A DNA stretch of 64,000 nucleotides. Source: an uncultured Pseudomonadota bacterium. GTDB taxonomy: Bacteria; Pseudomonadota; Gammaproteobacteria; Ga0077536. The notes below the pieces were generated by a model. The model worked only from the letters and a program-made list of their open reading frames with translations, did no database searches and had not been told where the DNA came from. The position numbers and the translations under genes are program-made. The stretch covers positions 117,289 through 181,288 of the forward strand of contig CAIKBL010000042.1 of assembly GCA_903825645.1 (NCBI GenBank), written 5' to 3'. Positions 4,365 to 40,309 of this stretch are shown piece after piece. The first letter of the stretch is position 1. Each line of letters opens with the position of its first letter.

Positions 4365-4431
4365 CAGGGACTCTCCCGTGGCGTGCACCGGCGCCCCTTG
4401 GCGCACCGCAGACATCGATTAAATTGAGATC

Positions 4432-11364: not shown

Positions 11365-12132
11365 ATGTATAAAAAAGCCAATCCGGTCACCCGTCTGTGC
11401 ACGAGCGACGTCGATAACATCTTGATCCGAGGTAGAAATCTGTGTGACGAGCTGATCGGGAAAGTGACGTTTACCGATTTCATTCTGTTTCATTTCTTCG
11501 GTAAAGATCCGACTCCCATGCAGCGTACGATTGTGGACGCGGTCATGGTGTGCATCATGGAGCACGGCATGACTCCCTCCGCCGTTGCCACGCGCATCAC
11601 CTACCTCGGCGCCCCCGAATCGCTCCAGGGCGCAGTGGCCGCCGGACTCCTCGGCGCCGGGACGCGGTTCGTCGGCGCGGCCGATGAAGCCGCTAAACTC
11701 CTCACGCGCATCACCGCCCAGCCGCTCGCCGCGCGGGCCGCGGAAGCCGCCGCAATCGCACAGGAATACACCGCTGCCAAGAAATTCCTGCCGGGTTATG
11801 GTCACCCGATTCACGTCAACGGCGATCCGCGCGTGACCCGACTCAACGCAGTGGCGCGTGCGGCCGGCGCCCAGGGCGACTATCTCGATGCCATGTTTCT
11901 GCTCGGGGACGCCATCAAGGTCGCCAGCGGTAAAAATATCGTGATCAACGTCAATGCCGCGATCGGCGCCGTGCTGCTCGAAGCCGGGATCCCGCCCAGT
12001 ATCGCGCGCGGTTTCAATCTCATCGCCCGTTGTGCCGGTCTGGTCGGTCACCTGCTGGAAGAGCAGGAAGAGCCGGCCGGCTACCACATCTGGCAACTGG
12101 CGGACGAAGGCGTGCCCTACGAGGCACCCTGA
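11365..12132 (+). CDS. citryl-CoA lyase / citrate-synthase-like small domain protein
   Basis: About 255 aa from MYKKANPV. The GYGHPIH motif resembles the citrate synthase / ATP-citrate-lyase C-terminal fold. Upstream part of ORF 11083 is an Arg-rich GC artefact. Confidence 0.6.
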   Translation: MYKKANPVTRLCTSDVDNILIRGRNLCDELIGKVTFTDFILFHFFGKDPTPMQRTIVDAVMVCIMEHGMTPSAVATRITYLGAPESLQGAVAAGLLGAGTRFVGAADEAAKLLTRITAQPLAARAAEAAAIAQEYTAAKKFLPGYGHPIHVNGDPRVTRLNAVARAAGAQGDYLDAMFLLGDAIKVASGKNIVINVNAAIGAVLLEAGIPPSIARGFNLIARCAGLVGHLLEEQEEPAGYHIWQLADEGVPYEAP

Positions 12133-12181
12133 TCGCGCGCGCCCATTCTTGCCTTACGACGGCCCTCGGAGTAACCACACC

Positions 12182-14494
12182 ATGACCCAGACCAAAACGT
12201 CACCTGAACACCAGGAACTCGAAACCATGCTGCGCGACAGCGCCGCCGACTTTTGCGCACGGGCGCTGAAGCGGGAGCGTCTGCGGGCGCTCCGCGGGGC
12301 GGCCCCCGCCTATGATCGGGCACTCTGGCGCCAAATGGCCGAACTCGGCTGGACCGAAATTTTGGTCCCCGCCACACAGGGCGGCCTCGGTCTCGGCGTG
12401 ACGGCCATTGCCGTGGTGTCCCGCAAGCTGGGCAGCGTCATCGCCCCGGAGCCGCTGCTCGAAACCGCGGTGGCGGCCGTGAGCGTGCTCTGCAGTCTGG
12501 GCGATCCGAGTCCGTGTCTGCCCGCCCTGACCGCCGGCACGCACGTGATCGTACCCGCCCTCGGCCAGGTCGGCGGGGACGCTTTTGCCGCCCTACACGC
12601 CACCGCGGTCGATCAATCGCATACCTTGGACGGCACCGTGACGGCACTGCCTCTGGGTCCGGACGCCGATCAGTGGTTGCTGCCAGCAACGCTGGCCGGG
12701 CAGCCGGCCTGGTTCCTCGTCAGCGCCCAGGCCCCCGGCGCCCACTGCGTCTCCCGAGAACTGGCCGACGGCAGCCGGGACGGCCATCTCACCCTGACCG
12801 CGTGCGCCGCCCAACTGCTCGGGCACGGCGAGCCTGCCCGCGCCGCGCTGGCGCTTGCCCGCACCCGAGTTGAAATCGCCTCCGGCGCCTATCTGCTCGG
12901 GCTGGCGGAAACGCTGTTCGCCATGACGCTCGATTATGTCGGGACCCGCCGCCAGTTCGGACAGGCCATCGGCAGCTTCCAGGTGCTGCAACACCGACTG
13001 GTCGACTTGTATATCGGGCTGCGGCTCACGGATGCGGTGCTCTCCGAGAGCTGTGCCACCATCGCGGAGGGGGCGGATGCACAAACCGCCGCCAGTCGCC
13101 TGCGGTACCGCGCCTGCGAAACCACCCTGGCGGTTATCCGGGAGGCCGTACAGATGCACGGCGCCATGGGCTACACCGACGAATGCGATGTCGGGCTCTA
13201 TCTGAACCGGGCGCTGGTGGTGATCACCCGTTACGGCAATGCCCGCGAACACGTCGCCGCGCTATCCGGCAACGGCACCCTACTCGCCGGGAGCGCGCAA
13301 GGGGCGGTCCTCCCCACGGTCAACATCAACTGCGCGACCCCCTCCGACGGTTGGAACAGTCTCGACAACGACACCTTCAGAGCGATCGTGCGCGGTTGGC
13401 ACGAAACACACTATCCGAGCGCGCTGCGCAATCCGCGCTCGCGCCCCCGCTGGACGCAATGCCGCGACTGGTATGCCACCCTGTATGCGCGCGGCTGGGC
13501 CGCGCCGGGCTGGCCGGCCGAGCATGGCGGGATGGGGCTCAGTCCAGACAAGCTCCTCATCTTCATCGAAGAGCGAGAACGCTGGGGGGTGGCGCGCACG
13601 CCGGATCAAGGGATCGTCATGGTCGGGCCGGTGTTAATGCAGCACGGCACGCCCACACAGCTCGCGCAGTATCTCCCCAAAGCCTTAAGCGGCGAGCACA
13701 TCTGGTGTCAGGGTTACTCGGAGCCGAACGCCGGATCTGACTTGGCCTCGTTGCGCACGAGCGCCGTGCGGGAAGGCGACGAATTCGTCATCAATGGACA
13801 GAAGATCTGGACCACCATGGCGCAAGATGCGACCCATATGTTCTGCCTGGTGCGAACCGATCCCCAAGCCAAACCCCAGCGGGGAATAAGCTTCGTGCTC
13901 ATCGACTTCAAGAGCCCGGGGATCACGGTGCGCCCCATCCGCAACATCTCGGGAGATTCGGAATTCTGCGAAGTCTTTCTCGACAATGTCCGCATCCCGG
14001 TCGACAGCGTAGTCGGCGCGCTGCATGACGGCTGGACCATTGCCAAAGCCTTGCTGGGCTTCGAGCGCCTGTTCATCGGCAGCCCCAAATATGGCCAGTA
14101 CGCATTGAACCGGCTACGCAGTCTTGCCGCGGCCCGCGGCCTGCTGGCCGATCCGGTGTTCGTCGACAAACTCACGCGCTTCACGTTGGACGTCGCTGAT
14201 CTGGAGGCCCTGTACAAGGTATTTGCGGACGTCGTAAAGCGCGGCGAGACCCTCGGTGCGGATGTCTCAACGCTCAAAATCTGGGCCAGTGAAACTTTTG
14301 CGCGGCTCAGCGAATTTCTGATCGAATCCGCCGGCCAGATGGGCGCCCAAGTGGGCGACATTGCGTTCGGGGACACTACTGTCGATGTGATGACGCAGTA
14401 TTGGAACGCGCGACCCACGACCATCTATGGCGGCAGTAACGAAATCCAGCGGAACATCATCGCCAAGCAGGTGTTGCGGCTGCCGGCGAATTAG
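12182..14494 (+). CDS. tandem-fused acyl-CoA dehydrogenase (two complete ACAD folds in one 770-aa polypeptide)
   Basis: First half 1-390 and second half 390-770 each contain ACAD N-alpha, beta-barrel and C-alpha domains (e.g. QGYSEPNAGSDLASL, FVINGQKIWTT, IYGGSNEIQRNIIA). Start ATG preceded by GGAG. Confidence 0.8.
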   Translation: MTQTKTSPEHQELETMLRDSAADFCARALKRERLRALRGAAPAYDRALWRQMAELGWTEILVPATQGGLGLGVTAIAVVSRKLGSVIAPEPLLETAVAAVSVLCSLGDPSPCLPALTAGTHVIVPALGQVGGDAFAALHATAVDQSHTLDGTVTALPLGPDADQWLLPATLAGQPAWFLVSAQAPGAHCVSRELADGSRDGHLTLTACAAQLLGHGEPARAALALARTRVEIASGAYLLGLAETLFAMTLDYVGTRRQFGQAIGSFQVLQHRLVDLYIGLRLTDAVLSESCATIAEGADAQTAASRLRYRACETTLAVIREAVQMHGAMGYTDECDVGLYLNRALVVITRYGNAREHVAALSGNGTLLAGSAQGAVLPTVNINCATPSDGWNSLDNDTFRAIVRGWHETHYPSALRNPRSRPRWTQCRDWYATLYARGWAAPGWPAEHGGMGLSPDKLLIFIEERERWGVARTPDQGIVMVGPVLMQHGTPTQLAQYLPKALSGEHIWCQGYSEPNAGSDLASLRTSAVREGDEFVINGQKIWTTMAQDATHMFCLVRTDPQAKPQRGISFVLIDFKSPGITVRPIRNISGDSEFCEVFLDNVRIPVDSVVGALHDGWTIAKALLGFERLFIGSPKYGQYALNRLRSLAAARGLLADPVFVDKLTRFTLDVADLEALYKVFADVVKRGETLGADVSTLKIWASETFARLSEFLIESAGQMGAQVGDIAFGDTTVDVMTQYWNARPTTIYGGSNEIQRNIIAKQVLRLPAN

Positions 14495-14583: not shown

Positions 14584-15825
14584 TTATCGGTAGTGGGGCA
14601 TGACCTCGCGGCCAAAGCGCTCCAACATCCGCTTCATGTCATCCATCGGCAAGTAGCCTTGATCCGACTGCCAGATGAACCATTCTGGGTTCGCGGTCTC
14701 CACCAGCAAGTCCATTTCCTTGCGCACATCTTTTTCATTCCCGACCAAGCAGAAATGGGATTTTTCGAAGCGCTCCATCGTCGCTTCCGATACCGGCAAG
14801 GGCTGGTTCGGGAAGTTGATGTCATCCTCAGGCAACCGGAAGGCGTCGGTGAAACCGAAGTCGTGCGCCCAGCCCGGCCAGCCCGTGCCCATCAAGCCTT
14901 TCATGGCCAGATCGCGCGCCTGCTGACGGGTGTCGGCCATGTAGACGCCCCGGAACACCCCAAAGTTCTCGCCAAGGGCGAGCGCGCGACCATGCAGGGC
15001 GGCCTCTTCGACATGGACCTCGGCAAAACGCCGCAAAATCGCCGGATCGGAGGTCAACACCGTCGGGATTGAGCCTTCCTTCGCCGCCCAGCGGATGGTG
15101 CTTTCGCTCTGGGAGAATGCCTGGAAAAGTGGCGGATGCGGCTTCTGGTAGGGCTTCGGCACCACATCAATCAGCTGGATGTTGCCAGCATCATCGACTT
15201 CCCCTGGCGAGCCGTATTTACGGGTCCAGTTGTGCGCCGGCCACGGGGTCCCGGTCTCGTAGGGATAAGGATATTCGTAGTACTTGCCCTTATAGCGGAA
15301 ACCGCCGTCTTTCCAGGCCAGCTTGATGATGTCAAAGACTTCCTGAAACGCTTCGCGGTTCACCGCATCATTGGTCGGTTGGCTTTCCTTGGTATTCATG
15401 GCGGCCGCACCGACGTGCAGATGTTGGGCCATCTGGTTCAGCCAGCGCGCCTGGTAACCCCGGGCGAAGCCGACAATCGTGCGTCCCTTGGTGATTTGAT
15501 CAAGCCAGGCGATTTCCAGGGCGAGTCGCAGTGGATCCCAACCCGCGAGGACATAGCCGATCGGACCGGCCTTGATAGTTTTGGTGTTGGCCAGAACATG
15601 CTGCGTCAGCAGCGGCAGGCTGCCCATTTCACCGCCCTCGGTGTGCAGGTGATGTTCGGGATAGGTCACTGCGGTGAAGCCGAGATCTTCGGCCATCTGC
15701 GAGAGCTCGACGACCTCGTCGAGCATCTGTTGGAACTTGTCCGTGCGACTGGCAATGGGGCGCAGTTTTTCACGCTCGTCCAGGGTTGCCGGAATCGCCG
15801 GGTAGAAGAAAAAAACAAATTTCAT
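14584..15825 (-). CDS. LLM-class flavin-dependent oxidoreductase
   Basis: 413 aa luciferase-like monooxygenase fold (TAVTYPEHHLHTEGG...). Confidence 0.8.
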   Translation of the reverse strand: MKFVFFFYPAIPATLDEREKLRPIASRTDKFQQMLDEVVELSQMAEDLGFTAVTYPEHHLHTEGGEMGSLPLLTQHVLANTKTIKAGPIGYVLAGWDPLRLALEIAWLDQITKGRTIVGFARGYQARWLNQMAQHLHVGAAAMNTKESQPTNDAVNREAFQEVFDIIKLAWKDGGFRYKGKYYEYPYPYETGTPWPAHNWTRKYGSPGEVDDAGNIQLIDVVPKPYQKPHPPLFQAFSQSESTIRWAAKEGSIPTVLTSDPAILRRFAEVHVEEAALHGRALALGENFGVFRGVYMADTRQQARDLAMKGLMGTGWPGWAHDFGFTDAFRLPEDDINFPNQPLPVSEATMERFEKSHFCLVGNEKDVRKEMDLLVETANPEWFIWQSDQGYLPMDDMKRMLERFGREVMPHYR

Positions 15826-16268: not shown

Positions 16269-18107
16269 ATGAATCAAGACCCCGCGCGGCCCGCGGTCGA
16301 CAACATCACTTATGGCGACGTCGCCTCCGTCTCGGGCGCACCCCTGTCGGCGATCCGCGAGGAAGACCGCGGACACGCTAAGCGCGGCGCGCAAATTCTC
16401 GCCGCGGCCCTGCGTGCCGAAGGCGTCGAATGTCTGTTCGGTTATCCGGGCGGCGCCAATCTCGAAATCTTCGATGTGCTGTCCGAATTCGGCATCCTGT
16501 GTTACCGCACCGAACACGAGCAGGGCGCCATTCATGCGGCCCAGGGCTACGCGCGCGCCACCGGTCGGGTCGGCGTGTGTCTCGCGACCTCTGGCCCCGG
16601 CGCCTGCAATCTAGTCACGGGTCTTGCCGATGCGAAAAGTGACTCGACGCCTATTGTCGCCATCACCGGCAACGTCCCCAGCTACCTCCTCGGCAAAAAT
16701 GCCTTCCAGGAGGCTGACATCGTCGGCATCACGCGGCTGATCACCAAGATCAGCATTCTGGTCGGCAGTGTGGCCGAGATCCCGGCGGCCGTGCGCAAAG
16801 GGTTTGCGCACGCCGTCATCAATCGCCCCGGGCCGGTGCTGATTGATCTCCCCAAAGACATCCAGCAGCATTTTCCACGCGATCCCGAAGGCCGTTATGT
16901 CCCACCTCGGATCCCGGCGGTGATCGATTCACCCGAAGTCGTGGTGGGCGCCATTCCAGAGTCCCAGCTGAAGCAATGCTTGCGCATGATCGCCGAAGCC
17001 GAGCGCCCCGTGATCTATGCCGGTGGTGGCATCGTCTCGAGCGGCACGGAAGCACGCCTCGTCGCCCTCGCGGACAAACTCGGCTGCCCGGTGACCACGA
17101 CGATCATGGGCTTGGGCGCGGTGCCTTCCGACCACCCCCTGTGGTTACATGTGCTGGGCATGCACGGCAGCTACACCGCGAATGTGGCCGTCAACGAGGC
17201 CGATCTGGTGATCGCCCTGGGTGTGCGGTTTGACGATCGCGTGACGGGCAACGTGAAGGAATTCATCAAGGATGGCCAGATCATCCATATCGACGTCGAT
17301 CGCGCCGAACTTAATAAGAATAAGGGCGTGACGCTCGGCATCGCGGCCGATCTCAGCACGGCCCTCGAACAGTTGATCGAGGCCGCCGTGCCCGGCGACT
17401 ACGCCGCATGGCGGCGACGCCTCGAGGCGATGAAAGCGCAATACCCGCTCAAGGCCCGCACCCGCGAAATCCTCGGCGGGCCGGCGGCCATCGAGCTGCT
17501 CTCGGATATGACGGCGGGTGACGCGCTGGTGACCGTCGGCGTCGGACAACACCAGATGTGGGCCATGCAGCACTACGCCATCAATCGCCGGCGCTCCTTC
17601 CTGTCCAGCTCCGGCTTCGGCACCATGGGCTACGGGCTGCCCGCCGCCATCGGCGCCAAGGTGGGCTGTCCAGATCGGCTCGTCATCGATATCGACGGCG
17701 ACGGCAGCCTCAACATGAGCATTCACGAGCTCTCCACCTGCCACCGTTATGGCATTGGCGTGAAAATCGTGTGCATCAATAACCAGTGGCTGGGGATGGT
17801 GCGTCAGTGGCAGGACATGATCTATTCGGGACACCGGGCTAATTCCTCGCTCGGCGATCCGATGGCGGTGAAGGCCGTCAGCGATGACGACATTTATCCC
17901 GATTTCGTGACCATTGCGGCCGGTTACCGAATCAAGGCCGAACGCGTCAGCACGGCGCGCGATCTGCCGGCGGCCTACGCACGCCTGCTGGCCGATCCGC
18001 AGGAGCCCTATCTGCTCGATGTCATTGTCGATCGCGAGCAGAACGTCTACCCGATGATTCCGGCGGGCGGCAGCTATCGCGACATCATTCTGGAAGGCGA
18101 CGGTTAA
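16269..18107 (+). CDS. thiamine-pyrophosphate enzyme of the acetolactate synthase (ALS) large-subunit family
   Basis: 612 aa. Pyr domain (GYPGGANLEIFD, TSGPGACNLVTGLADA), central domain and PP domain with TPP GDG...N motif (DGDGSLNMSIHEL). Confidence 0.85.
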   Translation: MNQDPARPAVDNITYGDVASVSGAPLSAIREEDRGHAKRGAQILAAALRAEGVECLFGYPGGANLEIFDVLSEFGILCYRTEHEQGAIHAAQGYARATGRVGVCLATSGPGACNLVTGLADAKSDSTPIVAITGNVPSYLLGKNAFQEADIVGITRLITKISILVGSVAEIPAAVRKGFAHAVINRPGPVLIDLPKDIQQHFPRDPEGRYVPPRIPAVIDSPEVVVGAIPESQLKQCLRMIAEAERPVIYAGGGIVSSGTEARLVALADKLGCPVTTTIMGLGAVPSDHPLWLHVLGMHGSYTANVAVNEADLVIALGVRFDDRVTGNVKEFIKDGQIIHIDVDRAELNKNKGVTLGIAADLSTALEQLIEAAVPGDYAAWRRRLEAMKAQYPLKARTREILGGPAAIELLSDMTAGDALVTVGVGQHQMWAMQHYAINRRRSFLSSSGFGTMGYGLPAAIGAKVGCPDRLVIDIDGDGSLNMSIHELSTCHRYGIGVKIVCINNQWLGMVRQWQDMIYSGHRANSSLGDPMAVKAVSDDDIYPDFVTIAAGYRIKAERVSTARDLPAAYARLLADPQEPYLLDVIVDREQNVYPMIPAGGSYRDIILEGDG

Positions 18108-18160
18108 GTCACCGCGCCGCTTGGTTTACGTCCCTGTCTTTATCACGGTCACAGGAGAAC

Positions 18161-18490
18161 ATGATGGCTATCTATGAAATGCGTACCTACACCCTGCAGG
18201 TCGGCAAGATGAGTGAGGCGGTGAAGCTTTATACCGAAATCGGCTATCCCGTGCTGCAGAAAAGCGGCCTGGACAAGAAGCTCATCGGTTATTTCCAGGC
18301 CGACACGGGCCTGATCAATCAGCTCGTCCACCTGTGGAAGTTTGATGACGACGCCGACCGGCGCGCGCATTGGGCGGCGCTCTATGCAAATCCGGATTTC
18401 ATGGACGGTTTTGCCCCGAAATTCCGTCCGCTACTCGTCTCCCAGGAAGTCAAATTACTGGTCGCCGCGCCCTGGGGTCCACATCCCTGA
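18161..18490 (+). CDS. NIPSNAP-family protein
   Basis: 109 aa with a dimeric alpha/beta-barrel-like sequence (MAIYEMRTYTLQVGKM). 56 bp after the TPP-enzyme stop. Confidence 0.65.
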   Translation: MMAIYEMRTYTLQVGKMSEAVKLYTEIGYPVLQKSGLDKKLIGYFQADTGLINQLVHLWKFDDDADRRAHWAALYANPDFMDGFAPKFRPLLVSQEVKLLVAAPWGPHP

Positions 18491-18535
18491 TTGGCAAAGT
18501 TTGCGTCGGCAAACCGCGCATAAGGAAACTAGCCC

Positions 18536-19780
18536 ATGTCGACCCTGCCTGATCCCGACGCCTTGCCGCTGGACCAGATCGATGTCAGCAATCCGCGCCT
18601 TTATCAGGCGGATGTCATCGGCCCGTACTTTGCGCGGCTGCGCCGTGAGGCGCCGGTGCATTACTGTGCGGACAGCGCGTATGGGCCGTTCTGGTCCATC
18701 ACCCGCTACGAGGACATCGTGACCGTCAACGCGGATGATGACGCGTTTTCCTGCAGTTACGAAAAGGGTGGCCATATTCTCGGTTACGAGAAACTCTTTC
18801 GGCGCCATGGGGTCGACGCGCGGATGTTTCAATCGACCGATGCGCCGCTGCACACCGCGCAGCGCAAAGCCATCGCACCGATTGTCGCCCGTGCGAGCGT
18901 GCGCGACATGGCGCTCATCATCCGCGAGCGCTGCGCCGAGGTGCTGGACGGTCTGCCCGTGGGCGAGCCCTTCAACTGGGTCGAAGCGGTGTCCATCGAG
19001 ATCACCACGCAGGTGCTGGCCGCCCTCTTCGATTTCCCCTGGGCGCAACGGCGATTGCTGACCCGTTGGTCAGATGTGGCCGTGACCGAGCCCGGCTTCG
19101 GTATCATCGACAGCTGGGAGGCCCGCCGACAAGAGCTCGAGGCCTGCTTCACCACCTTCGCCGAACTCTGGCAAACGCGTTTGACTGGCCCCCCGCGCGG
19201 CGATTTGCTGTCACTCATGGTGCACGCCGAGGGGACCAAGGATTTAAGTCCCGAGGAATTTCTCGGCAACTTGATTAACCTCATCGTCGGCGGGAATGAC
19301 ACCACCCGCAACTCGATGACCGGCGGCATCGTCGCCCTCAATCGGTATCCGCAGGCCTACGCGAAACTACGCACCGATCAGACCCTCGTCGACAGCATGG
19401 TGCCGGAGATTATTCGCTGGCAGACCCCCATCTCCCACATGGCCCGCACGGCGCTGCGCGATTACCGACTCGGCGAGGCGGAAATCAAGGCCGGCGATCG
19501 GATCGCCCTGTGGTACCTCTCGGGTAACCGGGACGACACCGCCATCGATGATCCGGAAACCTTCATCATCGACCGCCCTCAGCCGCGCCGACACTTATCG
19601 TTCGGCTTCGGCGCCCACCATTGCGTTGGCTACCGACTCGCAGAGCTCCAACTTAAAATCGCCTGGGAAGAAATCTTGAAGCGTTTCCGTCACATTGAGA
19701 TGGTGGGCGAGCCGGTGCGGGTGTGCTCTAACATCATTCACGGTTACACCGCGCTACCCGTTATCGCACACCCCTGGTAA
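18536..19780 (+). CDS. cytochrome P450 monooxygenase
   Basis: 414 aa. FGFGAHHCVGYRLAELQ heme loop and AGxDTT-like I-helix (GGNDTTRNS). Confidence 0.9.
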   Translation: MSTLPDPDALPLDQIDVSNPRLYQADVIGPYFARLRREAPVHYCADSAYGPFWSITRYEDIVTVNADDDAFSCSYEKGGHILGYEKLFRRHGVDARMFQSTDAPLHTAQRKAIAPIVARASVRDMALIIRERCAEVLDGLPVGEPFNWVEAVSIEITTQVLAALFDFPWAQRRLLTRWSDVAVTEPGFGIIDSWEARRQELEACFTTFAELWQTRLTGPPRGDLLSLMVHAEGTKDLSPEEFLGNLINLIVGGNDTTRNSMTGGIVALNRYPQAYAKLRTDQTLVDSMVPEIIRWQTPISHMARTALRDYRLGEAEIKAGDRIALWYLSGNRDDTAIDDPETFIIDRPQPRRHLSFGFGAHHCVGYRLAELQLKIAWEEILKRFRHIEMVGEPVRVCSNIIHGYTALPVIAHPW

Positions 19781-19802
19781 CCCACAAGACCGGCGCCAAG
19801 GC

Positions 19803-20561
19803 TCACGCGCTGAAACCGCCATCCACGCCGATGATCTGGCCGTTGATGTAGCTGGCACCGGGGGAGACGAGGAAGTCGACCACTGCACTGACTTCTTCCG
19901 GACGGCCCATGCGACCCAGGGGGGTGTGACTGACCATCGCGGAAATGACGCCCTGGGCGAGCGGATCGTCGGCGAATTCGGGCGCATAGACGATGCCGGC
20001 ATCAATGACCGCAGGCGCGATGCCATTGCAACGGACGTTGAACGGTCCCATCTCGCGCGCGGCCTGCTTGACCAGTGCGCCCACCGCGGTTTTTGGGCAG
20101 CCGGACATCCCGTCATTCTCCAGCGTGCGCAGCACGGCGGTCGTCAGGAACATGACCAGACTACCGCCACCCGCCGCCTTGAGCGCCCGAGTGCCGTGCT
20201 TGATCACATTGAACGCGCCGCGCACGTCGATGGCATAGACCCGATCAAAATCCTCGTCGGTGACGTCGATCAGCGGCCGCAGCGGGATCGCCGGTCCGGT
20301 CGCGCACACAATGGCCTGCAGACCATCACCGATCCCCTCGGCACGAGCCAGAAACGCCGCCACCGAGGCGGCATCGCGGATATCGACCGGCGCGATGATC
20401 GCCTGTCCGCCGGCGGCCTCGACCTGTCGGGCGAGCGCTTCAGCTTTGGACCGACGCTGGCCATAGCCGATGCAGACCGGGGCGCGCAGCGCGAGGGTCG
20501 TGACCACATGTTCGCCCAGCCCGCCGGTCGCGCCCAGTATCGCAATGGATTTCATATGCAC
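19803..20561 (-). CDS. SDR-family oxidoreductase
   Basis: 252 aa. Gly-rich NAD(P) motif ILGATGGLG and a Rossmann fold. Confidence 0.85.
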   Translation of the reverse strand: MHMKSIAILGATGGLGEHVVTTLALRAPVCIGYGQRRSKAEALARQVEAAGGQAIIAPVDIRDAASVAAFLARAEGIGDGLQAIVCATGPAIPLRPLIDVTDEDFDRVYAIDVRGAFNVIKHGTRALKAAGGGSLVMFLTTAVLRTLENDGMSGCPKTAVGALVKQAAREMGPFNVRCNGIAPAVIDAGIVYAPEFADDPLAQGVISAMVSHTPLGRMGRPEEVSAVVDFLVSPGASYINGQIIGVDGGFSA

Positions 20562-20592
20562 CTCGGATTAGTTATTTCGGAAAAGCCGCGCC

Positions 20593-22140
20593 TTACGGCG
20601 CGGCGAGTTCAAACGTGTGTCGGCCCGCTACGCAGCGAATATCGATGGAGCGCCCGATAACCGTCTCTTCGAAAAGACTGGCCAGACTCGCCGGATGCGC
20701 GCGCCCGGCCCAAGCCAGACAGCGCGCGCCATCGGCCTCGAGACGGGCTACCACAAAGCCTTCACTCGGCACCCCTTTGGCGTAGATGGCTGCATAGGTT
20801 TCGATACGGGCACGTCCTTCAGCGTGCTCGTCAATTCGCACGCCACTGTCCGCCTTGGCGCGCGCCTGGGCTGCGGACGAGGACACCGGGGCCCAGCTCA
20901 CGGGTGCGCGCCCGCTATACACGGCCGCGGCATGTTTCGACAGATATCCCCCGTTGGCGACGATGAGACCGTGCGCTTCCCGGTCCGCCCGCAGGCGTTC
21001 CACCAGCGTGGCGATCGCATGCAGGCTGTAGTTGTTGCCGGGTCCGCCAAAGAAGGGCAATCCGCCGGTCAGCGTCAGCGGACGACTGCCGTCGAGCGGC
21101 AGACCGAGCGATGCGGCAACGCTCGATACCGCAATCGGAAAACAGCTATAGATGTCGAGATATTGAATCTCCGCGATATCGCGCCCGGCGGCCTCCAGCG
21201 CTGCATGCACCGCCAGTCGCTGGGCTGGGGAGTCCGCGAGATCTGGCCGTTTCAGCACCGTGCGCTCGTCTACATCCGCATACCCCGAGAGATAGACCCA
21301 GCGTGAGGCCGGGATCCCCAGCTCGCGCGCGACGCCGACCGACGTCAACACCACCGCCGCCCCCTGATTGACCGCATCCTGCGCCACCATCCAGCGCGTA
21401 TAGGGTTCGCAGAGTGCGTAGTTCTGAGCCGACAGCGTCTGCAGAAACTCAGGCGTCTGCGCGTGGGGAAACTGGGCGTACGGATGGGCGGCGGCGACCG
21501 CGCTGAATGGCGCAAAAAGCTGCGCCATATCCGCCCGATAGGCCGCGCTTGACAACCCGCGTTGGGCGCGTCGGACCTGCTCGAACAGGGCATAGACATG
21601 GATGGGCCACGCGATACCCTGTGCCTGCTCGTAGGGCGTCACGAAGGGTACGCCTGGCCAGTGATCTTCAAAGGCCCCTTCGACTTCCTCACGCCAATCG
21701 AGGGCGATCCCCTGCCGGGTCGCCTGTCGGATCGTCGCGATGGCTTCAGCCCCCGTCAGCACCGCGAGTCGGACCTCGCCCGCGTGGACTCGCTCGGCCA
21801 GCCGGTTGATCAGCCGCTGAGGAGATTGTCCCCCGACTTCGGCGTAAATGGCCTCCCGCGGATGCAACCCGGTGCGCTGAGCGACCGACCAGGGGACGTT
21901 ATTCGTGCAGCCGAAAGGGTTCGGCCACATGGAGGCGTCAGCGATCGAGTGTTCGAACAGACGCACCACCGCGAGCACATCCACCTCGGCGCGCGCGGCG
22001 GCACTGAGGCCCGCGTCATCAAGCGCGCGATGGGTCGCGAGCGCCGCGAGTTCAATCGGCGAGCGGAGCTGCGCCGGGCGGCTGAGGTCGCGCTCCACCA
22101 CCTGACCGACGCCGACCAGAATAGGCAACTTGTCTTGCAT
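20593..22140 (-). CDS. thiolase-like protein with C-terminal extension (lipid-transfer/SCP-x-like family)
   Basis: 515 aa. N-terminal region has thiolase-fold character (LVGVGQVVERD...). About 120-aa extra C-terminal domain. Canonical thiolase Cys motifs not confidently identified. Confidence 0.55.
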   Translation of the reverse strand: MQDKLPILVGVGQVVERDLSRPAQLRSPIELAALATHRALDDAGLSAAARAEVDVLAVVRLFEHSIADASMWPNPFGCTNNVPWSVAQRTGLHPREAIYAEVGGQSPQRLINRLAERVHAGEVRLAVLTGAEAIATIRQATRQGIALDWREEVEGAFEDHWPGVPFVTPYEQAQGIAWPIHVYALFEQVRRAQRGLSSAAYRADMAQLFAPFSAVAAAHPYAQFPHAQTPEFLQTLSAQNYALCEPYTRWMVAQDAVNQGAAVVLTSVGVARELGIPASRWVYLSGYADVDERTVLKRPDLADSPAQRLAVHAALEAAGRDIAEIQYLDIYSCFPIAVSSVAASLGLPLDGSRPLTLTGGLPFFGGPGNNYSLHAIATLVERLRADREAHGLIVANGGYLSKHAAAVYSGRAPVSWAPVSSSAAQARAKADSGVRIDEHAEGRARIETYAAIYAKGVPSEGFVVARLEADGARCLAWAGRAHPASLASLFEETVIGRSIDIRCVAGRHTFELAAP

Positions 22141-22167
22141 GGTGAAACGCTCCTCGCGGGTCGTGGA

Positions 22168-23631
22168 TCAGGCCGTCATCGTATATTCGTTGAAATCGGG
22201 CGCCGCCATTTCAGCTTGGAAACGCTCCAGCGTCCACGGCCACAGAATTGGCTGCCCGGATTTGTCCAGGTACCAGCTCCGACAGCCACTGACCCACACG
22301 GTGTCCTTCATTGCCGCACGCAGATCTGCGTTGAAGGCGGCGCAGGCCTCCGCGCGCGGCGCCACGGCCCGACAATGCCCCGCGCGTAGCGGGGCCAACA
22401 GCTGGAGCAGATAGGCCACCTGCATCTCGGCCACCATGATGAGCGAGAAGTTGCCAATGGGGCTGTTCGGACCAATCAACATGAAAAAATTCGGGAAGCC
22501 CGGCACCGAGAGGCTGCGATGGGTGGTCAGCCCCGTGGCCCAGGTCTGTTCGAGTCGGTGACCGTCGGCACCGATGATGTCGATTGAACGCACGAAGCGG
22601 TGGGCATCAAAACCGGTGGCGTAGACGAGCACATCGAGCTCGCGCAAGGTGCCATCGCTGAGCCGGATCCCGCGCGGTTCAATGCGCGTAATCGGCGTGG
22701 TCTCAACCGCCGCGTGCGGACGCTGGATAGCCGCATAAAAGGTTTCGGACATGATGAGCCGCTTGCAGGCCACCTGGTAATCCGGCGTCAGCTTGGCCCG
22801 CAAGTCCGGATCGGGCACGTGCTGCATCAGGTTGTCGCGACAGGCCTGAGCAATTTTCGCAAGCTGCTCTTGATCGCCAATCACCGCCCGCGCGAGGGTG
22901 GTCCTGATGCGATCGAGCCACTGCTGATAGGCCTGCTGGAGGGTCTCGGGATGTGCCCGGAAATGTATTTTCTGGGCTTCGGTAAACACCGGGTTGGGCA
23001 GCGGCAAGACCCATTGGGGGGTTCGCTGGAACAGCGTCAGGGCCGCGACTTCATCGACGATCGCGGGCACCAGCTGAATCGCGGTCGAGCCAGTGCCGAC
23101 GATCCCGACACGTTTGCCGGCCAGGCTCACCCCGGTCTGCCAGCGGGCGGTGTGAAAGGCCGGTCCCGCGAAATCGCTGCGTCCCGGGATGTCGGGCAGG
23201 ATCGGGTGGTGCAAAACGCCGGTGGCCGCAATCACCACGTCGGCCTCGGCCTGTGTACCATCCGTGAACGTCAGCTGCCAGACTTCGCCCTGACGCGCCG
23301 CCGCGCATAACGTCTTGCCGAAGCGAATGTGATCGGTGATCGCATGTTTATGCGCCACCGCGTCCAGATAACGGAGGATTTCGCTGCCCGGCGAAAACAA
23401 ACGGCTCCACTCCGGATTGAGTTCGAAGGAATAACAGTAGTGCTGTGAGGGCACATCGCAGGTCAACCCCGGGTAGACGTTATCCCGCCAGGTGCCCCCT
23501 AAGCGATCGGCCTTCTCGTAGACCGTCACCGCGGTATAGCCGGCTTCCCGAAATTTGAGGGCCGCAAGAATGCCGGACATGCCGGCGCCGATGATGGCTA
23601 CCCGTAAGGGAGTCGTGTTCGCGGAAATCAT
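22168..23631 (-). CDS. Baeyer-Villiger (flavin-containing) monooxygenase
   Basis: FAD GxGxxG (AIIGAGMSG), BVMO fingerprint FAGPAFHTARW, second Rossmann (VGIVGTGSTA). Start at MISANTTP within ORF 22168..23751. Confidence 0.85.
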   Translation of the reverse strand: MISANTTPLRVAIIGAGMSGILAALKFREAGYTAVTVYEKADRLGGTWRDNVYPGLTCDVPSQHYCYSFELNPEWSRLFSPGSEILRYLDAVAHKHAITDHIRFGKTLCAAARQGEVWQLTFTDGTQAEADVVIAATGVLHHPILPDIPGRSDFAGPAFHTARWQTGVSLAGKRVGIVGTGSTAIQLVPAIVDEVAALTLFQRTPQWVLPLPNPVFTEAQKIHFRAHPETLQQAYQQWLDRIRTTLARAVIGDQEQLAKIAQACRDNLMQHVPDPDLRAKLTPDYQVACKRLIMSETFYAAIQRPHAAVETTPITRIEPRGIRLSDGTLRELDVLVYATGFDAHRFVRSIDIIGADGHRLEQTWATGLTTHRSLSVPGFPNFFMLIGPNSPIGNFSLIMVAEMQVAYLLQLLAPLRAGHCRAVAPRAEACAAFNADLRAAMKDTVWVSGCRSWYLDKSGQPILWPWTLERFQAEMAAPDFNEYTMTA

Positions 23632-23837
23632 ACGGCATCCAATCCCGGGTGCGAGGCATACGCTTTGCCGGGAAGTTCGAGCACCGCGCCCGGCGCATCG
23701 CCGTCGGTTCCGACCGCGCGGTTCTCTGCGTACAACGCCGGTTCCGCGCAATTTTTATAAATAAAACAGGGCCTACGCGGGGCGCTATCGATTTCCATGC
23801 ATGGTCTCCGTTCCCCAGTCTGGCGTGGGGGGTCAAT

Positions 23838-24323
23838 TCAATTCCGGGTCAAGGCCTGCAAATTGGCCTTGATAAGGCCGAGGATCCGCAGACCTGCCCG
23901 GACGTCGGCCGGTTCAAGCCCAGCCAGAATGCGCGCATTGAGCCCGAGGGCGACCCCCCGCAGCGTGACGACGGCGTGTCGGCCCGCCGGAGTCAGAAAC
24001 ACCGCCCAAATGCGCCGATCCGCGGCGCTGCCGCGTTTTTCCACCAAACCGGCACTACTCAGTCGCTCCACACATTCACCCACGGCGACCTTGCCGAGCT
24101 CGAGCTGCTGCGCCAGTGCTGATTGAGACAAGCCGTCCCGCTGCGAAAGATGACGTAAGACCGACGCCTGCGCCGTGGTGAACCCGACAGGCCGGAGGGC
24201 GTCGTCGAACACCTGTCGACGCAAGCGTGCCGCATCATTAATCGCGAAGCCGAGTTTGAGCGCCTGCTGCTCGTCGAGCGACTCCGCCGTGGCGGGCTGG
24301 CAAGGGGGGGAGGGAAGCGGCAT
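23838..24323 (-). CDS. MarR-family transcriptional regulator
   Basis: 161 aa. Winged-HTH region TTAQASVLRHLSQRDGLSQSALAQQLELGKVAVGECVERL. Confidence 0.8.
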   Translation of the reverse strand: MPLPSPPCQPATAESLDEQQALKLGFAINDAARLRRQVFDDALRPVGFTTAQASVLRHLSQRDGLSQSALAQQLELGKVAVGECVERLSSAGLVEKRGSAADRRIWAVFLTPAGRHAVVTLRGVALGLNARILAGLEPADVRAGLRILGLIKANLQALTRN

Positions 24324-24324
24324 G

Positions 24325-24360
24325 CTTCAATTATAGTGCGGTACCGTACTACAATTGAAG
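24325..24360. promoter_or_regulatory. 36-bp near-perfect palindrome abutting the marR start codon (putative MarR operator)
   Basis: CTTCAATTATAGTGCGGTACCGTACTACAATTGAAG has 32/36 positions self-complementary with a central CGGTACCG core. It sits between the divergent marR and MDR-reductase genes. Confidence 0.5.
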
Positions 24361-24447
24361 CCGCAAACGGGCCGAATACGGCGCCGTTCCCCTATCCCCG
24401 GGCGGGTCCGGCGCGACGTGCCCGCCGCCAAGCCTCAGGAGCTACCC

Positions 24448-25461
24448 ATGTCCGAACCCCTCAATCGTCAGGTCGTGCTGGCGGCCCGTCCCAACGGGAT
24501 CCCGCAGGCCCATGATTTCGAGATCGTCACGCGCCCCATGCCCATGCCAGGCGACGGTGAAGTCCGGGTGCGCAACCTGTTTCTCTCCGTCGAGCCGGCG
24601 ATGCGGGGCTGGGTGTCGAGTGTCGGAAACTATTCCGAGCCGGTCGCGATAGGGGCGGTCATGCGCGCGCTCACCGTCGGACAGATCGAGGCGTCGAACC
24701 TCCCCGGGATGGCCGTTGGCGAGTACGTCACCGGCATGTTCGGCTGGCAGGAATACGCGCTCGCCAATGCCCAGACCATCGATCGCCGGGTCCCGCCGCC
24801 CGGACTGCCGATTGCCACCGCGCTGGGGATCCTCGGGATCAACGGCAATGCCGCCTATTTTGGTCTCCTCGACATCGGCCAGCCCAAGGCCGGCGAGACC
24901 GTGGTGGTCTCCACGGCTGCCGGCGCCGTCGGCGCCTGTGTCGGGCAAATCGCGAACCTCCAGGGTTGCCGTACCGTCGGCATTGCGGGCGGCGCAGTCA
25001 AAACGCGACTCTGTACCGAAATCTTCGGCTATGCCGCAGCCATCGATTACAAGACAGCCGATCTCGATACCGCCCTGCGTGCGGCCTGTCCGTCCGGGAT
25101 CGACGTCTATTTCGACAATACCGCCGGCCCCATCACCGACGCGGTACTGCGACACCTCAACCCGCGGGCACGCGTCGTCATTTGTGGGACCGCCGCGGTG
25201 GCGAGTTGGGATCCGCCGCCCCTAGGGCCGCGGATCGAACGTCATTTTTTAGTCAAACGGGCGCGCATGGAGGGCTTCGTCGTGTTCGATTACAAGACGC
25301 GCTACCCCGAAGCCTTGGCCGCCTTAACGCAGTGGGTCAGCGCCGGACAGATCCGCTACCGCGAAGACATCCTGCACGGCCTGGAAGCAGCGCCGGATGC
25401 CATTGCGGGACTCTATCGGGGCGAGAATCTAGGCAAACGACTCATTCAACTCGGCGCATGA
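24448..25461 (+). CDS. NADP-dependent oxidoreductase, MDR superfamily (alkenal/one reductase-like)
   Basis: 338 aa. GroES-like N-terminal domain plus Rossmann (AAGAVGACVGQIA). AGGAG RBS. Paralogue at 36172. Confidence 0.85.
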   Translation: MSEPLNRQVVLAARPNGIPQAHDFEIVTRPMPMPGDGEVRVRNLFLSVEPAMRGWVSSVGNYSEPVAIGAVMRALTVGQIEASNLPGMAVGEYVTGMFGWQEYALANAQTIDRRVPPPGLPIATALGILGINGNAAYFGLLDIGQPKAGETVVVSTAAGAVGACVGQIANLQGCRTVGIAGGAVKTRLCTEIFGYAAAIDYKTADLDTALRAACPSGIDVYFDNTAGPITDAVLRHLNPRARVVICGTAAVASWDPPPLGPRIERHFLVKRARMEGFVVFDYKTRYPEALAALTQWVSAGQIRYREDILHGLEAAPDAIAGLYRGENLGKRLIQLGA

Positions 25462-25536: not shown

Positions 25537-26412
25537 ATGCAAATCGGTTTTCTGCACATCGCGACCACCCAGGCCGGCGATCTCCCCACCCTCGCACGGC
25601 GCGCGGAGGCGATCGGCTTTGACTCGATGTGGATCCCGGAACATCCCGTCATCCCGGTGGAACGCACGACGCCTTACCTGTTGGGTGGAGAGCTGCCTGA
25701 GCATTACGGCCGTTGGACCGATCCGTTCATCTCGCTGACGATGGCCGCCGCGGTGACCACCAAACTCAAACTTGCGACCGGCATCTGCTTGTTACCTGAG
25801 CGGGAAACGCTGGTGACCGCGAAAACGATCGCGACCCTCGATTACTATTCGCGTGGCCGGGTGGTGCTGGGGATCGGCGCCGGCTGGCTCCGGGAAGAAA
25901 CGGAAGTCATGGGGGCCTCGTTCACCACCCGCTGGCGCCGGATGCGCGAGATGACCGAAGCCATGCGCCGCTTATGGACCGAAGACAAGCCCAGTTTCAA
26001 CGGAACCGAAATCAAGTTCCCGGCGGTCCGCAGCGAACCCAAACCCGTGCAGGCCGGCGGCCCACCGTTCCTCCTCGGCGGTCACGGCGAGAAGGCCTTG
26101 ACCCGGATCGCGCGAACCTACGACGGCTGGTGTCCCATCGTAGCGGGCCCGGATGAGTTCGCGGCAGAAGCCGCGCAACTGCGCGAGATGATGCGCGCCA
26201 ACGGTCGCGATCCGGCCAAGCTCATCCTGAGCCCGTTTGTCGATCCGGAGGACGGCAAATTATCCGAGGCAACCCTCAAAGCGTATCGCGCCGCCGGCGC
26301 GCACCGCATTGTCCTTTTCTCAATACAAATGTCGGAAGAAATCGCGAACGGTGCGGCGGGTGACTGGCTGGAGAAAACCGCCAACATCGTGAGCCGTAAC
26401 GCCGCCCTGTAA
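25537..26412 (+). CDS. LLM-class F420/flavin-dependent oxidoreductase
   Basis: 291 aa luciferase-like TIM barrel (GFDSMWIPEHP). RBS GAGGAAG. Confidence 0.75.
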   Translation: MQIGFLHIATTQAGDLPTLARRAEAIGFDSMWIPEHPVIPVERTTPYLLGGELPEHYGRWTDPFISLTMAAAVTTKLKLATGICLLPERETLVTAKTIATLDYYSRGRVVLGIGAGWLREETEVMGASFTTRWRRMREMTEAMRRLWTEDKPSFNGTEIKFPAVRSEPKPVQAGGPPFLLGGHGEKALTRIARTYDGWCPIVAGPDEFAAEAAQLREMMRANGRDPAKLILSPFVDPEDGKLSEATLKAYRAAGAHRIVLFSIQMSEEIANGAAGDWLEKTANIVSRNAAL

Positions 26413-26500: not shown

Positions 26501-26863
26501 ATGACCTGGGCCACCACTTTTGCCACTCGCTGGCAGGACTTCTACAACCATGCCGTCGAACGCCTCGTCAACGAGTGTTACGCCACAGACTGCGCCATCC
26601 ATGCCATGGGCGCAGGAGTGTTCCACGGCCGCGCCGCGCTGCTCAAAATAGAGCGGGCCGTCTTACGTGCCGCCCCGACACGTTTCCTGAAGCTGGACAC
26701 GGTGCGCGGCGATGACACGTGCATCATCATCGAGGCGACCCTGCAGGAAACACCCGAAGTCGGCGCCTGGCAAATCCCCTTCTGCGCCGTCCTCACGCTG
26801 GAGAATGGATTGGTGGTGCGAGATCACACCTACGCGGACTGGTCAAAGTGGCCAGGTCTCTAA
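26501..26863 (+). CDS. SnoaL/NTF2-like small protein
   Basis: 120 aa with the size and hydrophobic pattern of an NTF2-like cone fold. No stronger signature. Confidence 0.45.
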   Translation: MTWATTFATRWQDFYNHAVERLVNECYATDCAIHAMGAGVFHGRAALLKIERAVLRAAPTRFLKLDTVRGDDTCIIIEATLQETPEVGAWQIPFCAVLTLENGLVVRDHTYADWSKWPGL

Positions 26864-28746: not shown

Positions 28747-29913
28747 TTAATAGCTTTTCGGTAACTCGAGTACCTTCTCAGCAATGAAACACTTGATGAG
28801 CTGCTCGGTCACCGGTGCGATGCGCATGATGGTGACTTCGCGGAGCAGCCGCTCGACGTGATATTCCTTCGCATAGCCAAAACCGCCATGGGTCAGGACC
28901 GCTTGCAGACACGCCTCATGACCGGCTTTCGCACCCAGGTATTTGGCGGCGTTGGCCTCTGCACCACAAGGGCGCTCATTGTCGTACAACCAGGCCGCCT
29001 TCATGACCATGGTGTAGGCCGCCTCGAGATCCATCCAGTTCTCGGCCAACGGGTGTTGAATGCCCTGATTCATGCCGATCGGGCGGCCGAAAACGACGCG
29101 CTCGCGCGCATAGCGCGTCGCGCGACGAAGCGCGTCCTGCCCAATGCCGATGGCTTCTACCGCGACGAGGATGCGCTCGGGATTCAGGCTGTGCAGGATG
29201 TAAGAAAAACCTTTGCCCTCTTCGCCGATACGATCGCTTTCAGGGATGAACAAGTTGTCGATGAAAACCGTGTTCGAATCGACTGCCTTGCGGCCCATCT
29301 TCGGAATGCGTTTCACGTCGATTTTGGTGCGATCGAGATCGGTATAGAAAATCGTGATCCCGTCGGTCGGGCGCTTGCAATCCTCCAGACGGGTAGTCCG
29401 GGTCAGCAGCATGATTTTGTTGGCCACCTGCGCGGTGGAGGTCCACACTTTCTGGCCATTGACCCGATACCCCCCCTCAACCTTCTGGGCGAAGGTCTTG
29501 ATGTGGGTCGTGTTGAGCCCGGCGTCAGGCTCCGTGAAGCCAAAGCAGCACTGATCGGTGCCGGCAACCAGGCGCGGCAACCAGCACGACTTCTGCGCTT
29601 CCGTGCCGAACAGTACGATCGGATGCGGCCCGAACAGGTTCACGTGGACAGACGACGCGGCCGCCATCCCGCCCCCGTGACTCGCCACCTCGTGCATCAT
29701 GATCGCCGCCTCTGTCACGCCAAGTCCCGAGCCGCCATAAGCTTCCGGCAGGGTGATCCCGAGCCAGCCCGCGTCCGCCATCGCCCGATGGAATTCCCGG
29801 GGGAAAACTCCATCCTCATCACGCTCGAGCCAGTAATCCGGCTCGAAACGTTTGGCCACGGTGGCAACGGCGTCGCGGATCGCGCGATGTTCTGGCGAGA
29901 TATCGAAATTCAT
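28747..29913 (-). CDS. acyl-CoA dehydrogenase
   Basis: 388 aa. ACAD N-, middle- and C-domains (CFGFTEPDAGLNTT, YRVNGQKVWTS). Confidence 0.9.
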   Translation of the reverse strand: MNFDISPEHRAIRDAVATVAKRFEPDYWLERDEDGVFPREFHRAMADAGWLGITLPEAYGGSGLGVTEAAIMMHEVASHGGGMAAASSVHVNLFGPHPIVLFGTEAQKSCWLPRLVAGTDQCCFGFTEPDAGLNTTHIKTFAQKVEGGYRVNGQKVWTSTAQVANKIMLLTRTTRLEDCKRPTDGITIFYTDLDRTKIDVKRIPKMGRKAVDSNTVFIDNLFIPESDRIGEEGKGFSYILHSLNPERILVAVEAIGIGQDALRRATRYARERVVFGRPIGMNQGIQHPLAENWMDLEAAYTMVMKAAWLYDNERPCGAEANAAKYLGAKAGHEACLQAVLTHGGFGYAKEYHVERLLREVTIMRIAPVTEQLIKCFIAEKVLELPKSY

Positions 29914-40212: not shown

Positions 40213-40309
40213 AGGGGATCCGCCGTCGTGCCCTATCGCCTTGAGGCCACCCTCGTCTTCGGTGAGCTTTGCGTCTACAGTCGAGCCTCGACTATCCGGA
40301 TCGGGTGCC

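Follow-up and report, generated by a model that had tools for sequence, protein, structure and literature searches.

The question raised by this locus is whether a group of oxidoreductase genes around a MarR-type repressor gene forms one catabolic system or more than one. The genes lie in a stretch of 64,000 nucleotides from an uncultured gammaproteobacterium, which is called the window in the following. On the minus strand, the marR gene is followed by genes for a type I Baeyer-Villiger monooxygenase (BVMO), a thiolase-like protein and a short-chain dehydrogenase/reductase (SDR), and these converge on a plus-strand cluster that encodes a thiamine diphosphate (TPP)-dependent enzyme, a NIPSNAP-domain protein and a cytochrome P450. 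An earlier reading of the bare sequence (the sequence-only reading) had combined all of them into a single island for the degradation of alicyclic ketones or terpenoids. The gene calls rested on the listing of open reading frames (ORFs), Pfam, NCBIfam and public gene calls, which were all in agreement and confirmed all genes of that reading. The single island was not retained, among other reasons because the two clusters were not co-conserved beyond one related metagenome-assembled genome (MAG), in which they are about 8 kb apart. Instead, it is fairly probable that the locus consists of two separable units, a MarR-repressed ketone-oxidation module (unit A) and a neighbouring cluster of acetohydroxyacid synthase (AHAS)-type, NIPSNAP and CYP153 genes with a history of its own (unit B).

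A Putative Operator at the marR Start Codon

The marR gene (23838-24323, minus strand) encodes a protein of 161 aa, which matched the Pfam families MarR_2 (45.9 bits, cut-off 27) and MarR (33.8 bits, cut-off 24.6). None of the curated MarR equivalogs was matched, the best being the Saro_0803 family with 45.7 bits versus a cut-off of 200. The protein belongs to a narrow clade, in which only 13 homologues reached at least 53% identity, and the N-terminal lengths of the homologues agree with the ATG at 24323. Directly upstream, a near-perfect palindrome of 36 bp (24325-24360) had been noticed in the region between marR and the divergent gene for a reductase of the MDR superfamily. A palindrome search verified that it is real, that it lies in this region and that it abuts the marR start codon (ATG, 24323-24321). 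Its extent had to be revised to 38 bp (24324-24361), and the MDR gene now starts at 24448. The arms of 19 nt each (24324-24342 and 24343-24361) of this site (GCTTCAATTATAGTGCGGT/ACCGTACTACAATTGAAGC) are complementary at 17 of 19 positions and are not separated by a spacer. It was the only palindrome of such quality in the 64 kb, and none was found in 30 Markov shuffles. A degenerate pattern of the full site had one match in the window versus 0.00 expected, and no further half-sites were present elsewhere in the window.

Read in the direction of marR, the sequence is GCTTCAATTGTAGTACGGTACCGCACTATAATTGAAGC, which is directly followed by the ATG. A perfect TATAAT ends 6 nt before this start codon, and at the symmetric position a TACAAT points in the opposite direction, towards the MDR gene. 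As this spacing leaves no room for a Shine-Dalgarno sequence, we infer that the marR gene is probably translated from a leaderless mRNA.

The conservation of the site was analyzed with the three closest marR orthologues on usable contigs, which are 67-78% identical (loci L171, L172 and L173). The window and all three loci have an 18-bp core, TAGTACGGWWCCKYACTA, immediately in front of marR. When the four sequences were aligned, the block TAGTACGG..CC..ACTA.A proved invariant, while the flanks were divergent; the conserved core can be written as TAGTACGG-WW-CCKYACTA. The pattern TAGTACGGWWCCKYACTA did not occur in the other 172 of the 176 loci that were fetched, and is therefore exclusive to the loci of the marR orthologues. 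The arrangement TA(T/G)AAT, 6 nt, ATG was kept in three of the four loci (window, L171 and L173), and the TACAAT element only in the window and L171, which are the two loci with a divergent MDR gene. A conserved core within divergent flanks is good phylogenetic-footprint evidence for an operator, for autoregulation and for the BVMO gene as the conserved target. Accordingly worded, the proposal of the sequence-only reading that the palindrome is a MarR operator candidate is strongly supported by this comparison, and the marR gene is predicted to be autoregulated.

The gene order around the orthologues was equally informative. In L171 (MarR 78% identical) a divergent MDR gene (80%) is followed by marR and by a BVMO gene (73%), which is cut by the end of the contig. 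In L172 (MarR 67%) and in L173 (MarR 68%) marR is followed by a gene for a luciferase-like (LLM) oxidoreductase and then by a BVMO gene (71 and 77%, respectively). The marR gene is thus tied to the BVMO, an orthologue of which (71-77%) lies downstream of marR on the same strand in three of three closest loci. As L172 and L173 keep the BVMO gene in the absence of the MDR gene, the conserved target is the BVMO. P450 or TPP enzyme genes were never found beside the marR orthologues in these three loci.

More distant relatives behaved differently. In 80 metagenome loci with MarR relatives of 39-56% identity no BVMO, MDR or thiolase-like protein gene was nearby, and a palindrome scan of the 15 best-matching distant loci did not reveal a comparable palindrome, save one unrelated in L100. 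Therefore, conservation of the operator can be assessed only in the three closest orthologues. Searches of plasmids yielded MarR matches of at most 42% identity. The palindrome upstream of the MarR relative in L100 reads ATATCGTATGCATGCATACTATAT. MarR relatives with 41-53% identity (L092, L095, L100, L128, L157 and L164) are often encoded no more than about 3 kb from an acyl-CoA dehydrogenase gene, the product of which is a 78-87% orthologue of that encoded at 28747-29913 of the window; in L092, L095 and L100 the two genes are divergent and about 200 bp apart. In a separate group of MarR relatives (41-46%) an SDR gene precedes on the same strand.

The arrangement resembles that of autoregulated repressors of the MarR/SlyA type, such as Escherichia coli MarR at marO, HpaR and OhrR. 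Common features are the winged-helix MarR domain, an inverted repeat of about 20-40 bp over the own -10 box and start in a divergent promoter region, seen here at the level of sequence, and the location beside genes for catabolic or detoxifying oxidoreductases. Differences are the missing match to a curated equivalog, the narrow clade, and the distance of only 6 nt between -10 box and ATG, which implies a leaderless transcript.

The BVMO and Its Upstream ORF

The BVMO gene (22168-23631, minus strand) was identified by Pfam and by motifs and encodes a protein of 487 aa. A longer ORF of 527 aa that extends to a TTG was rejected, because the FAD-binding GxGxxG begins at residue 14 of the shorter protein, the orthologues have 486 aa and a length of 487 aa was also obtained by the gene callers. 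With this start, the gap between marR and the BVMO gene amounts to 206 bp. Gaps of 20-30 bp had been described for the whole minus-strand cluster; short gaps were indeed found between the genes for the BVMO and the thiolase-like protein (27 bp) and between the latter and the SDR gene (37 bp), but not downstream of marR.

The protein has the features of a type I enzyme, i.e., two GxGxxG motifs (IIGAGMSG and VGTGST), FAGPAFHTARW and GGTWRDNVYPGLTCD; the second type I fingerprint that was applied is [A/G]GxWxxxx[F/Y]P[G/M]xxxD. The sequence FAGPAFHTARW is followed by Q, where the fingerprint FxGxxxHxxxW[P/D] has P or D. With about 540-aa solved BVMOs as reference the protein is short, and it was aligned with them in two pieces, with about 45 residues missing. 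The scores were very similar for PAMO (234 bits), CHMO (223-230 bits), STMO (222-224 bits) and OTEMO (211 bits). Owing to these near-equal distances, the enzyme could not be placed in a cycloketone clade, and membership in the cyclohexanone or cyclopentadecanone monooxygenase clades found no support in this comparison of bit scores.

The 206-bp gap contains an upstream ORF (uORF) of 56 aa (23628-23798, minus strand), which is preceded by a GGAGA Shine-Dalgarno sequence and the stop codon of which overlaps the BVMO start as ATGA. In L171 an ORF of 30 aa (about 2678-2770, plus strand) has the same position, the same Shine-Dalgarno sequence and ATG and the same ATGA overlap with the BVMO gene. 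When the two spacers were aligned, only the Shine-Dalgarno sequence and the ATG of the uORF were conserved. The lack of conservation of the peptide suggests translational coupling rather than a functional peptide, and the uORF is a possible translational-coupling leader for the BVMO.

Clusters with a dedicated local regulator beside a type I BVMO gene are known, e.g., EthR-EthA with a regulator of the TetR type, ChnR-chnB with one of the AraC type and CpnR-cpnB with one of the NtrC type. The window shares with them the local regulator and the accessory dehydrogenases, and differs in that its regulator is of the MarR type. Classical cycloketone clusters also encode a lactone hydrolase, in contrast to the cluster in the window. 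A literature search did not yield a described catabolic pair of MarR and BVMO, and a search on the BVMO of Novosphingobium ES2-1 returned nothing relevant. On plasmids, BVMO homologues of up to 48% identity were found together with NTF2, ene-reductase and SDR genes, and these clusters are not orthologous to that of the window. The 48% homologues on sphingomonad plasmids are accompanied by NTF2-family genes, and the similar logic of these clusters (NTF2-like, ene-reductase and SDR genes) fits a ketone or enone chemistry.

The Thiolase-Like Protein and the SDR

The gene downstream of the BVMO gene (20593-22140, minus strand) encodes 515 aa and had been described as thiolase-like. The protein belongs to the family of thiolase-like proteins type 1 (TLP1): it contains the domain TLP1_add_C (PF18313, 42.4 bits, cut-off 26.1) and matched TLP1 of Mycobacterium smegmatis (MsTLP1, PDB 4egv) over residues 4-478 with an E-value of 1.6e-100. 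All NCBIfam acetyl-CoA acetyltransferase models remained below their cut-offs. Of the thiolase fingerprints that were tested (CxS, NEAF, GHP and CxG), NEAF and GHP are replaced by YSCF and GGL, as in MsTLP1, with which the protein shares also the extra C-terminal domain. The catalytic Cys is missing from MsTLP1, which is not active as a thiolase (PMC3406046), and the protein of the window is not predicted to be a thiolase.

The genomic context of the family was surveyed with 80 TLP1 homologues from GTDB genomes. A BVMO gene was adjacent in one of the 80 cases, an acyl-CoA dehydrogenase gene was adjacent in eight and present within 10 kb in 27. The position directly downstream of a BVMO gene thus sets the TLP1 gene of the window apart from its family, which is more often found beside acyl-CoA dehydrogenases. 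A conserved context of BVMO, SDR and MarR genes was not found around the 80 homologues, and hence the four-gene operon is not a family-wide unit. In the related MAG (locus L087) BVMO and TLP1 genes are kept together with divergent LLM and SnoaL genes. The SDR gene (19803-20555, minus strand; 250 aa, classical type according to Pfam, NCBIfam and the gene calls) does not follow TLP1 in L087; its position is not conserved in related loci, and it is peculiar to this genome. The arrangements that proved robust are therefore operator, marR and BVMO, found in four loci, and BVMO and TLP1, found in two related loci and in an independent pair from Hyphomonas.

In this Hyphomonas locus (L081, 8221-11509) the TLP1 gene lies directly downstream of the gene for an unrelated BVMO of 551 aa, among housekeeping genes. 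In an alphaproteobacterial MAG (L028, 8681-11524) it lies, also among housekeeping genes, directly downstream of a gene for a P450 that is 50% identical to the P450 of the window. As several independent lineages (window and L087, L081, L028) have TLP1 immediately behind an oxygenase, and as invariant Cys, His and Ser residues are kept, it could be speculated that TLP1 is a dedicated partner of oxygenases that processes oxygenated products, e.g., by CoA-dependent cleavage or transfer of the BVMO ester. We regard this as highly improbable; if true, TLP1 would stand in for the esterase that is missing from the cluster.

The Divergent Genes

The MDR gene (24448-25461, plus strand) was assigned an ATG behind AGGAG, in accordance with the gene calls, and a start at TTG 24355 was rejected on these grounds. 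The protein has the Pfam architecture ADH_N_2 plus ADH_zinc_N and reached 371 bits with the NCBIfam CurA model, which is below the equivalog cut-off of 440. Its relatives in the PDB are double-bond, pulegone and prostaglandin reductases. The prediction of an ene-reductase was therefore borne out by NCBIfam and the PDB, more precisely as an NADPH-dependent alkenal/one double-bond reductase of the CurA/PTGR1/YncB type.

Two genes follow on the same strand. The first (25537-26412) encodes an LLM oxidoreductase with 250 bits in the F420-type family TIGR03619 (cut-off 166.9), the second (26501-26863, from the public gene calls) a SnoaL/NTF2-like protein of 120 aa. In L087 an 80% orthologue of the LLM gene is divergent from BVMO and TLP1 and is followed by a 64% SnoaL orthologue. 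Further luciferase-like oxidoreductase genes of the window are located at 3342-4415, 14584-15825 and 53445-54539. One of the luciferase-like oxidoreductases is above the cut-off of the F420-dependent family TIGR03619, in a gammaproteobacterial genome that is apparently Gram-negative; a gene for a periplasmic glucan protein (MdoG) in the window points to a Gram-negative host.

A Model for Unit A

In the model that we favour, a MarR dimer would bind the 38-bp palindrome, which overlaps the -10 boxes of two back-to-back promoters. Binding would cause repression in both directions, of marR, the uORF and the BVMO, TLP1 and SDR genes as well as of the divergent MDR gene; the repressed set may extend to the LLM and SnoaL genes that follow the latter. 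A lipophilic carbonyl compound, either a ketone or an enone, would release the repressor. The CurA/PTGR-type MDR enzyme would saturate an alpha,beta-unsaturated ketone, the SDR would interconvert secondary alcohol and ketone, and the BVMO would insert oxygen to yield an ester or a lactone. An alicyclic or terpenoid substrate is possible. In this uncultured gammaproteobacterial lineage, MarR, TAGTACGGWWCCKYACTA and the short type I BVMO make up a putative triplet of regulator, operator and target, which is testable and could serve as a ketone-responsive switch or lead to a new class of BVMO substrates. In other respects the locus is unremarkable, being one accessory cluster of oxidation genes in a genome that has many of them.

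Several observations weigh against this model. No sigma-70 promoter was called within the palindrome by a strict scan, as agreement of the -35 hexamers (TTCAAT) is limited to three of six positions. The 206-bp gap upstream of the BVMO gene could hold an independent, unregulated promoter, and a second copy of the operator was not found there. The cluster does not contain an ester or lactone hydrolase, and the pathway as drawn is therefore incomplete. In L087 BVMO and TLP1 occur in the absence of marR, MDR and SDR genes, which indicates that membership in the operon is fluid. Furthermore, only four loci carry the operator, and the contig of L173 breaks off 4 nt before the core. Lastly, both the window and the related genome (L089/L087) have unit A in the neighbourhood of unit B, so that a functional link is conceivable.

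The TPP Enzyme, NIPSNAP and CYP153 Genes

The genes for the TPP enzyme (16269-18107, 612 aa), the NIPSNAP-domain protein (18164-18490, 108 aa, Pfam) and the P450 (18536-19780, 414 aa) are separated by 56 and 45 bp and do form the tight cluster that had been described. The P450 and SDR genes are convergent and 22 bp apart, and the promoter/terminator scan did not call a terminator between them.

The TPP enzyme, a ThDP- and FAD-type protein of the acetolactate synthase (ALS) family according to Pfam, NCBIfam and PDB matches, had been suspected to cleave C-C bonds like cyclohexane-1,2-dione hydrolase (CDH). With the model of the large subunit of biosynthetic AHAS (TIGR00118) it reached 625.6 bits (cut-off 538.35), and it was below the cut-off of every clade-specific AHAS equivalog. 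Its 15 best PDB matches were all AHAS, with the Arabidopsis enzyme on top (539 bits, 47% identity), and CDH was not among the 60 best PDB matches listed. The equivalents of Arabidopsis AHAS E144, A122, P197, A205, Q207, D376/R377 and W574 are conserved, and the motifs HEQG, AFQE, RFDDRVTG and QWQD align with the catalytic Glu and the acceptor and herbicide-site residues. The homologues carry NCBI names of biosynthetic AHAS. Taken together, these results argue against a C-C cleaving enzyme and point to an ordinary AHAS-type carboligation as the most likely reaction.

Half of the condition that the sequence-only reading had set for its own refutation was thus found, namely the grouping with biosynthetic AHAS, but the ilvN/ilvC context was not: ilvN, ilvH and ilvC were absent from the window and from the neighbourhood of the five TPP enzyme orthologues that were examined, the rest of the genome being outside the scope. 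In addition to this missing context, the enzyme differs from plant, yeast and bacterial biosynthetic AHAS, with which it shares the TIGR00118 score and the active-site residues, by an N-terminal extension of 38 residues. The place that is usual for the AHAS small subunit is occupied by the NIPSNAP gene, which has an 88% orthologue in the same position in L089. A weaker idea is that NIPSNAP, in the ilvN position, could be a surrogate small subunit for the orphan AHAS; a literature search for ALS together with NIPSNAP and P450 returned nothing relevant.

Orthologues of the TPP enzyme with 70-85% identity are abundant and their contexts vary. The gene stands alone in L005 and L174, is found among other BVMO genes in L090, and follows a gene for a citrate-synthase-like protein and a double acyl-CoA dehydrogenase gene in L004; the same pair is located upstream in the window and in L089. 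The order TPP enzyme, NIPSNAP, P450 was present only in the window and in L089. In this related genome (L089/L087) the TPP cluster is separated from the BVMO and TLP1 genes by about 8 kb with unrelated genes, one of which encodes an IS200-type transposase. That the TPP enzyme was part of one island with unit A is therefore not supported; it is predicted to be an orphan AHAS-type enzyme, and nothing indicates a C-C hydrolase chemistry or membership in the MarR module. The pair of genes for the citrate-synthase-like protein (255 aa) and the fused double acyl-CoA dehydrogenase (about 770 aa), located at 11365-14494 of the window (plus strand), 6830-9942 of L004 and 4959-7262 of L089, is better conserved than any other upstream neighbour of the AHAS-type gene. 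Together with this gene, the pair forms a tight cluster on the same strand in L004, behind a GntR regulator gene.

The P450 is a member of the CYP153 family, judged by at least 40% identity to a named CYP153 and the presence of the heme-thiolate loop. It matched CYP153A7 (PDB 3rwl) with 514 bits and 56% identity over 403 aligned residues, and has the motifs GGNDTTRN (I-helix) and FGFGAHHCVG (heme-thiolate loop, FGFGxHxCxG in the pattern shared with CYP153A7). The predicted activity is that of an omega-hydroxylase. Unlike CYP153 class I operons, the cluster lacks genes for a ferredoxin and a ferredoxin reductase, and the P450 gene is preceded by the AHAS-like and NIPSNAP genes. The Cys motif of ferredoxins was absent from every real ORF of the 64-kb window and occurred only in out-of-frame artefacts, and a ferredoxin reductase was found neither in the cluster nor in the window; the redox partners must therefore be encoded elsewhere. 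The four P450 genes of the window are located at 33-1232, 5106-6338, 18536-19780 and about 40300-41563.

Together with the TLP1 gene, which is annotated as acetyl-CoA acetyltransferase, the ALS-family gene (AHAS-type) and the P450 gene (CYP153) are cases in which annotations were corrected that would mislead pathway reconstruction.

Alternative Explanations

Among the alternatives to the two-unit model, a stress module survived best, although it is unlikely. According to this explanation, marR and the MDR gene would form a switch for the detoxification of electrophiles or xenobiotics such as enones, quinones and aldehydes, and BVMO, TLP1 and SDR would assist in detoxification instead of degrading a carbon source. 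The MDR enzyme belongs to the CurA/PTGR alkenal/one reductase family, members of which reduce reactive enones, the divergent pair of marR and MDR gene is conserved in L171, and regulators of the MarR family commonly sense reactive enones, quinones and aldehydes. However, L172 and L173 lack the MDR gene and keep the BVMO gene, which makes the latter the conserved target. In addition, none of the cysteines is shared by the whole MarR clade, Cys8 being present only in the protein of the window and a recognition-helix Cys only in the closest members, so that a thiol-based sensing is not supported.

Quite unlikely is an aliphatic pathway for sub-terminal alkane or methyl-ketone oxidation, in which CYP153 and SDR would produce long-chain ketones, the BVMO would convert these to esters, and TLP1 and acyl-CoA dehydrogenases would lead to beta-oxidation. 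The CYP153 family is, according to the literature, best known for the omega-hydroxylation of alkanes, the TLP1 homologues in the survey were most often located beside acyl-CoA dehydrogenases, and the window encodes several of the latter as well as an enoyl-CoA hydratase, a CoA-transferase and an acyl-CoA synthetase. Yet CYP153 enzymes hydroxylate terminally and not sub-terminally, neither alkB nor an esterase or a redox partner was found locally, and the P450 gene is not co-conserved with marR and BVMO.

Very unlikely is a single MarR-controlled catabolic island with ring hydroxylation by CYP153, ketone formation by the SDR, lactone formation by the BVMO, enone reduction by the MDR enzyme and CDH-like C-C cleavage by the TPP enzyme: alicyclic and terpene hydroxylases do occur among the CYP153 enzymes, the locus encodes BVMO, SDR and ene-reductase, pulegone reductases are among the relatives of the MDR enzyme, and in two related genomes unit A lies not far from unit B, but the TPP enzyme is AHAS-type and its orthologues are mostly solitary or accompanied by citrate-synthase-like and acyl-CoA dehydrogenase genes, the operator is single and was not found upstream of the TPP-P450 cluster, marR orthologues never occur with P450 or TPP enzyme genes, the BVMO could not be placed in a cycloketone clade by the bit-score test, and lactonase, esterase, aldehyde dehydrogenase and P450 redox partner (ferredoxin, ferredoxin reductase) were not found in the cluster.

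The density of redox genes has also to be considered. The window contains genes for four P450s, four luciferase-like oxidoreductases, two MDR reductases and three SDRs, and furthermore for two acyl-CoA dehydrogenases (one of them the fused double-domain protein), a nitronate monooxygenase, two nitroreductases and a molybdenum hydroxylase. Co-location is therefore expected from density alone, and the location of a P450 gene beside the BVMO operon lends little support to a common pathway.

Genomic Background and Minor Observations

A horizontally acquired island was also rejected. The GC content of the span (0.61-0.66) is like that of the rest of the window (about 63%) and shows no compositional break, and a search for signs of mobile elements revealed neither tRNA genes nor an integrase gene. 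The window was identical to metagenome-assembled contigs, the longest of which (131 kb) is from ENA ERZ1426846, and uncultured Gammaproteobacteria were the closest relatives with a name. An Rfam scan did not reveal an RNA element within the span.

The sole other strong palindrome in the window, a perfect one of 24 bp (56613-56636), lies inside an ORF with a histidine-box motif (HHRFAD...DPHSP) that resembles a membrane fatty-acid desaturase and has no Pfam match. Outside of the span, an SAH riboswitch (Rfam RF01057, 61.9 bits versus a gathering score of 37) was detected at 31619-31690 on the minus strand, upstream of the gene for S-adenosylhomocysteine hydrolase. Its position indicates that the true start of ahcY is located downstream of the GTG at 31783 that is given in the ORF list.

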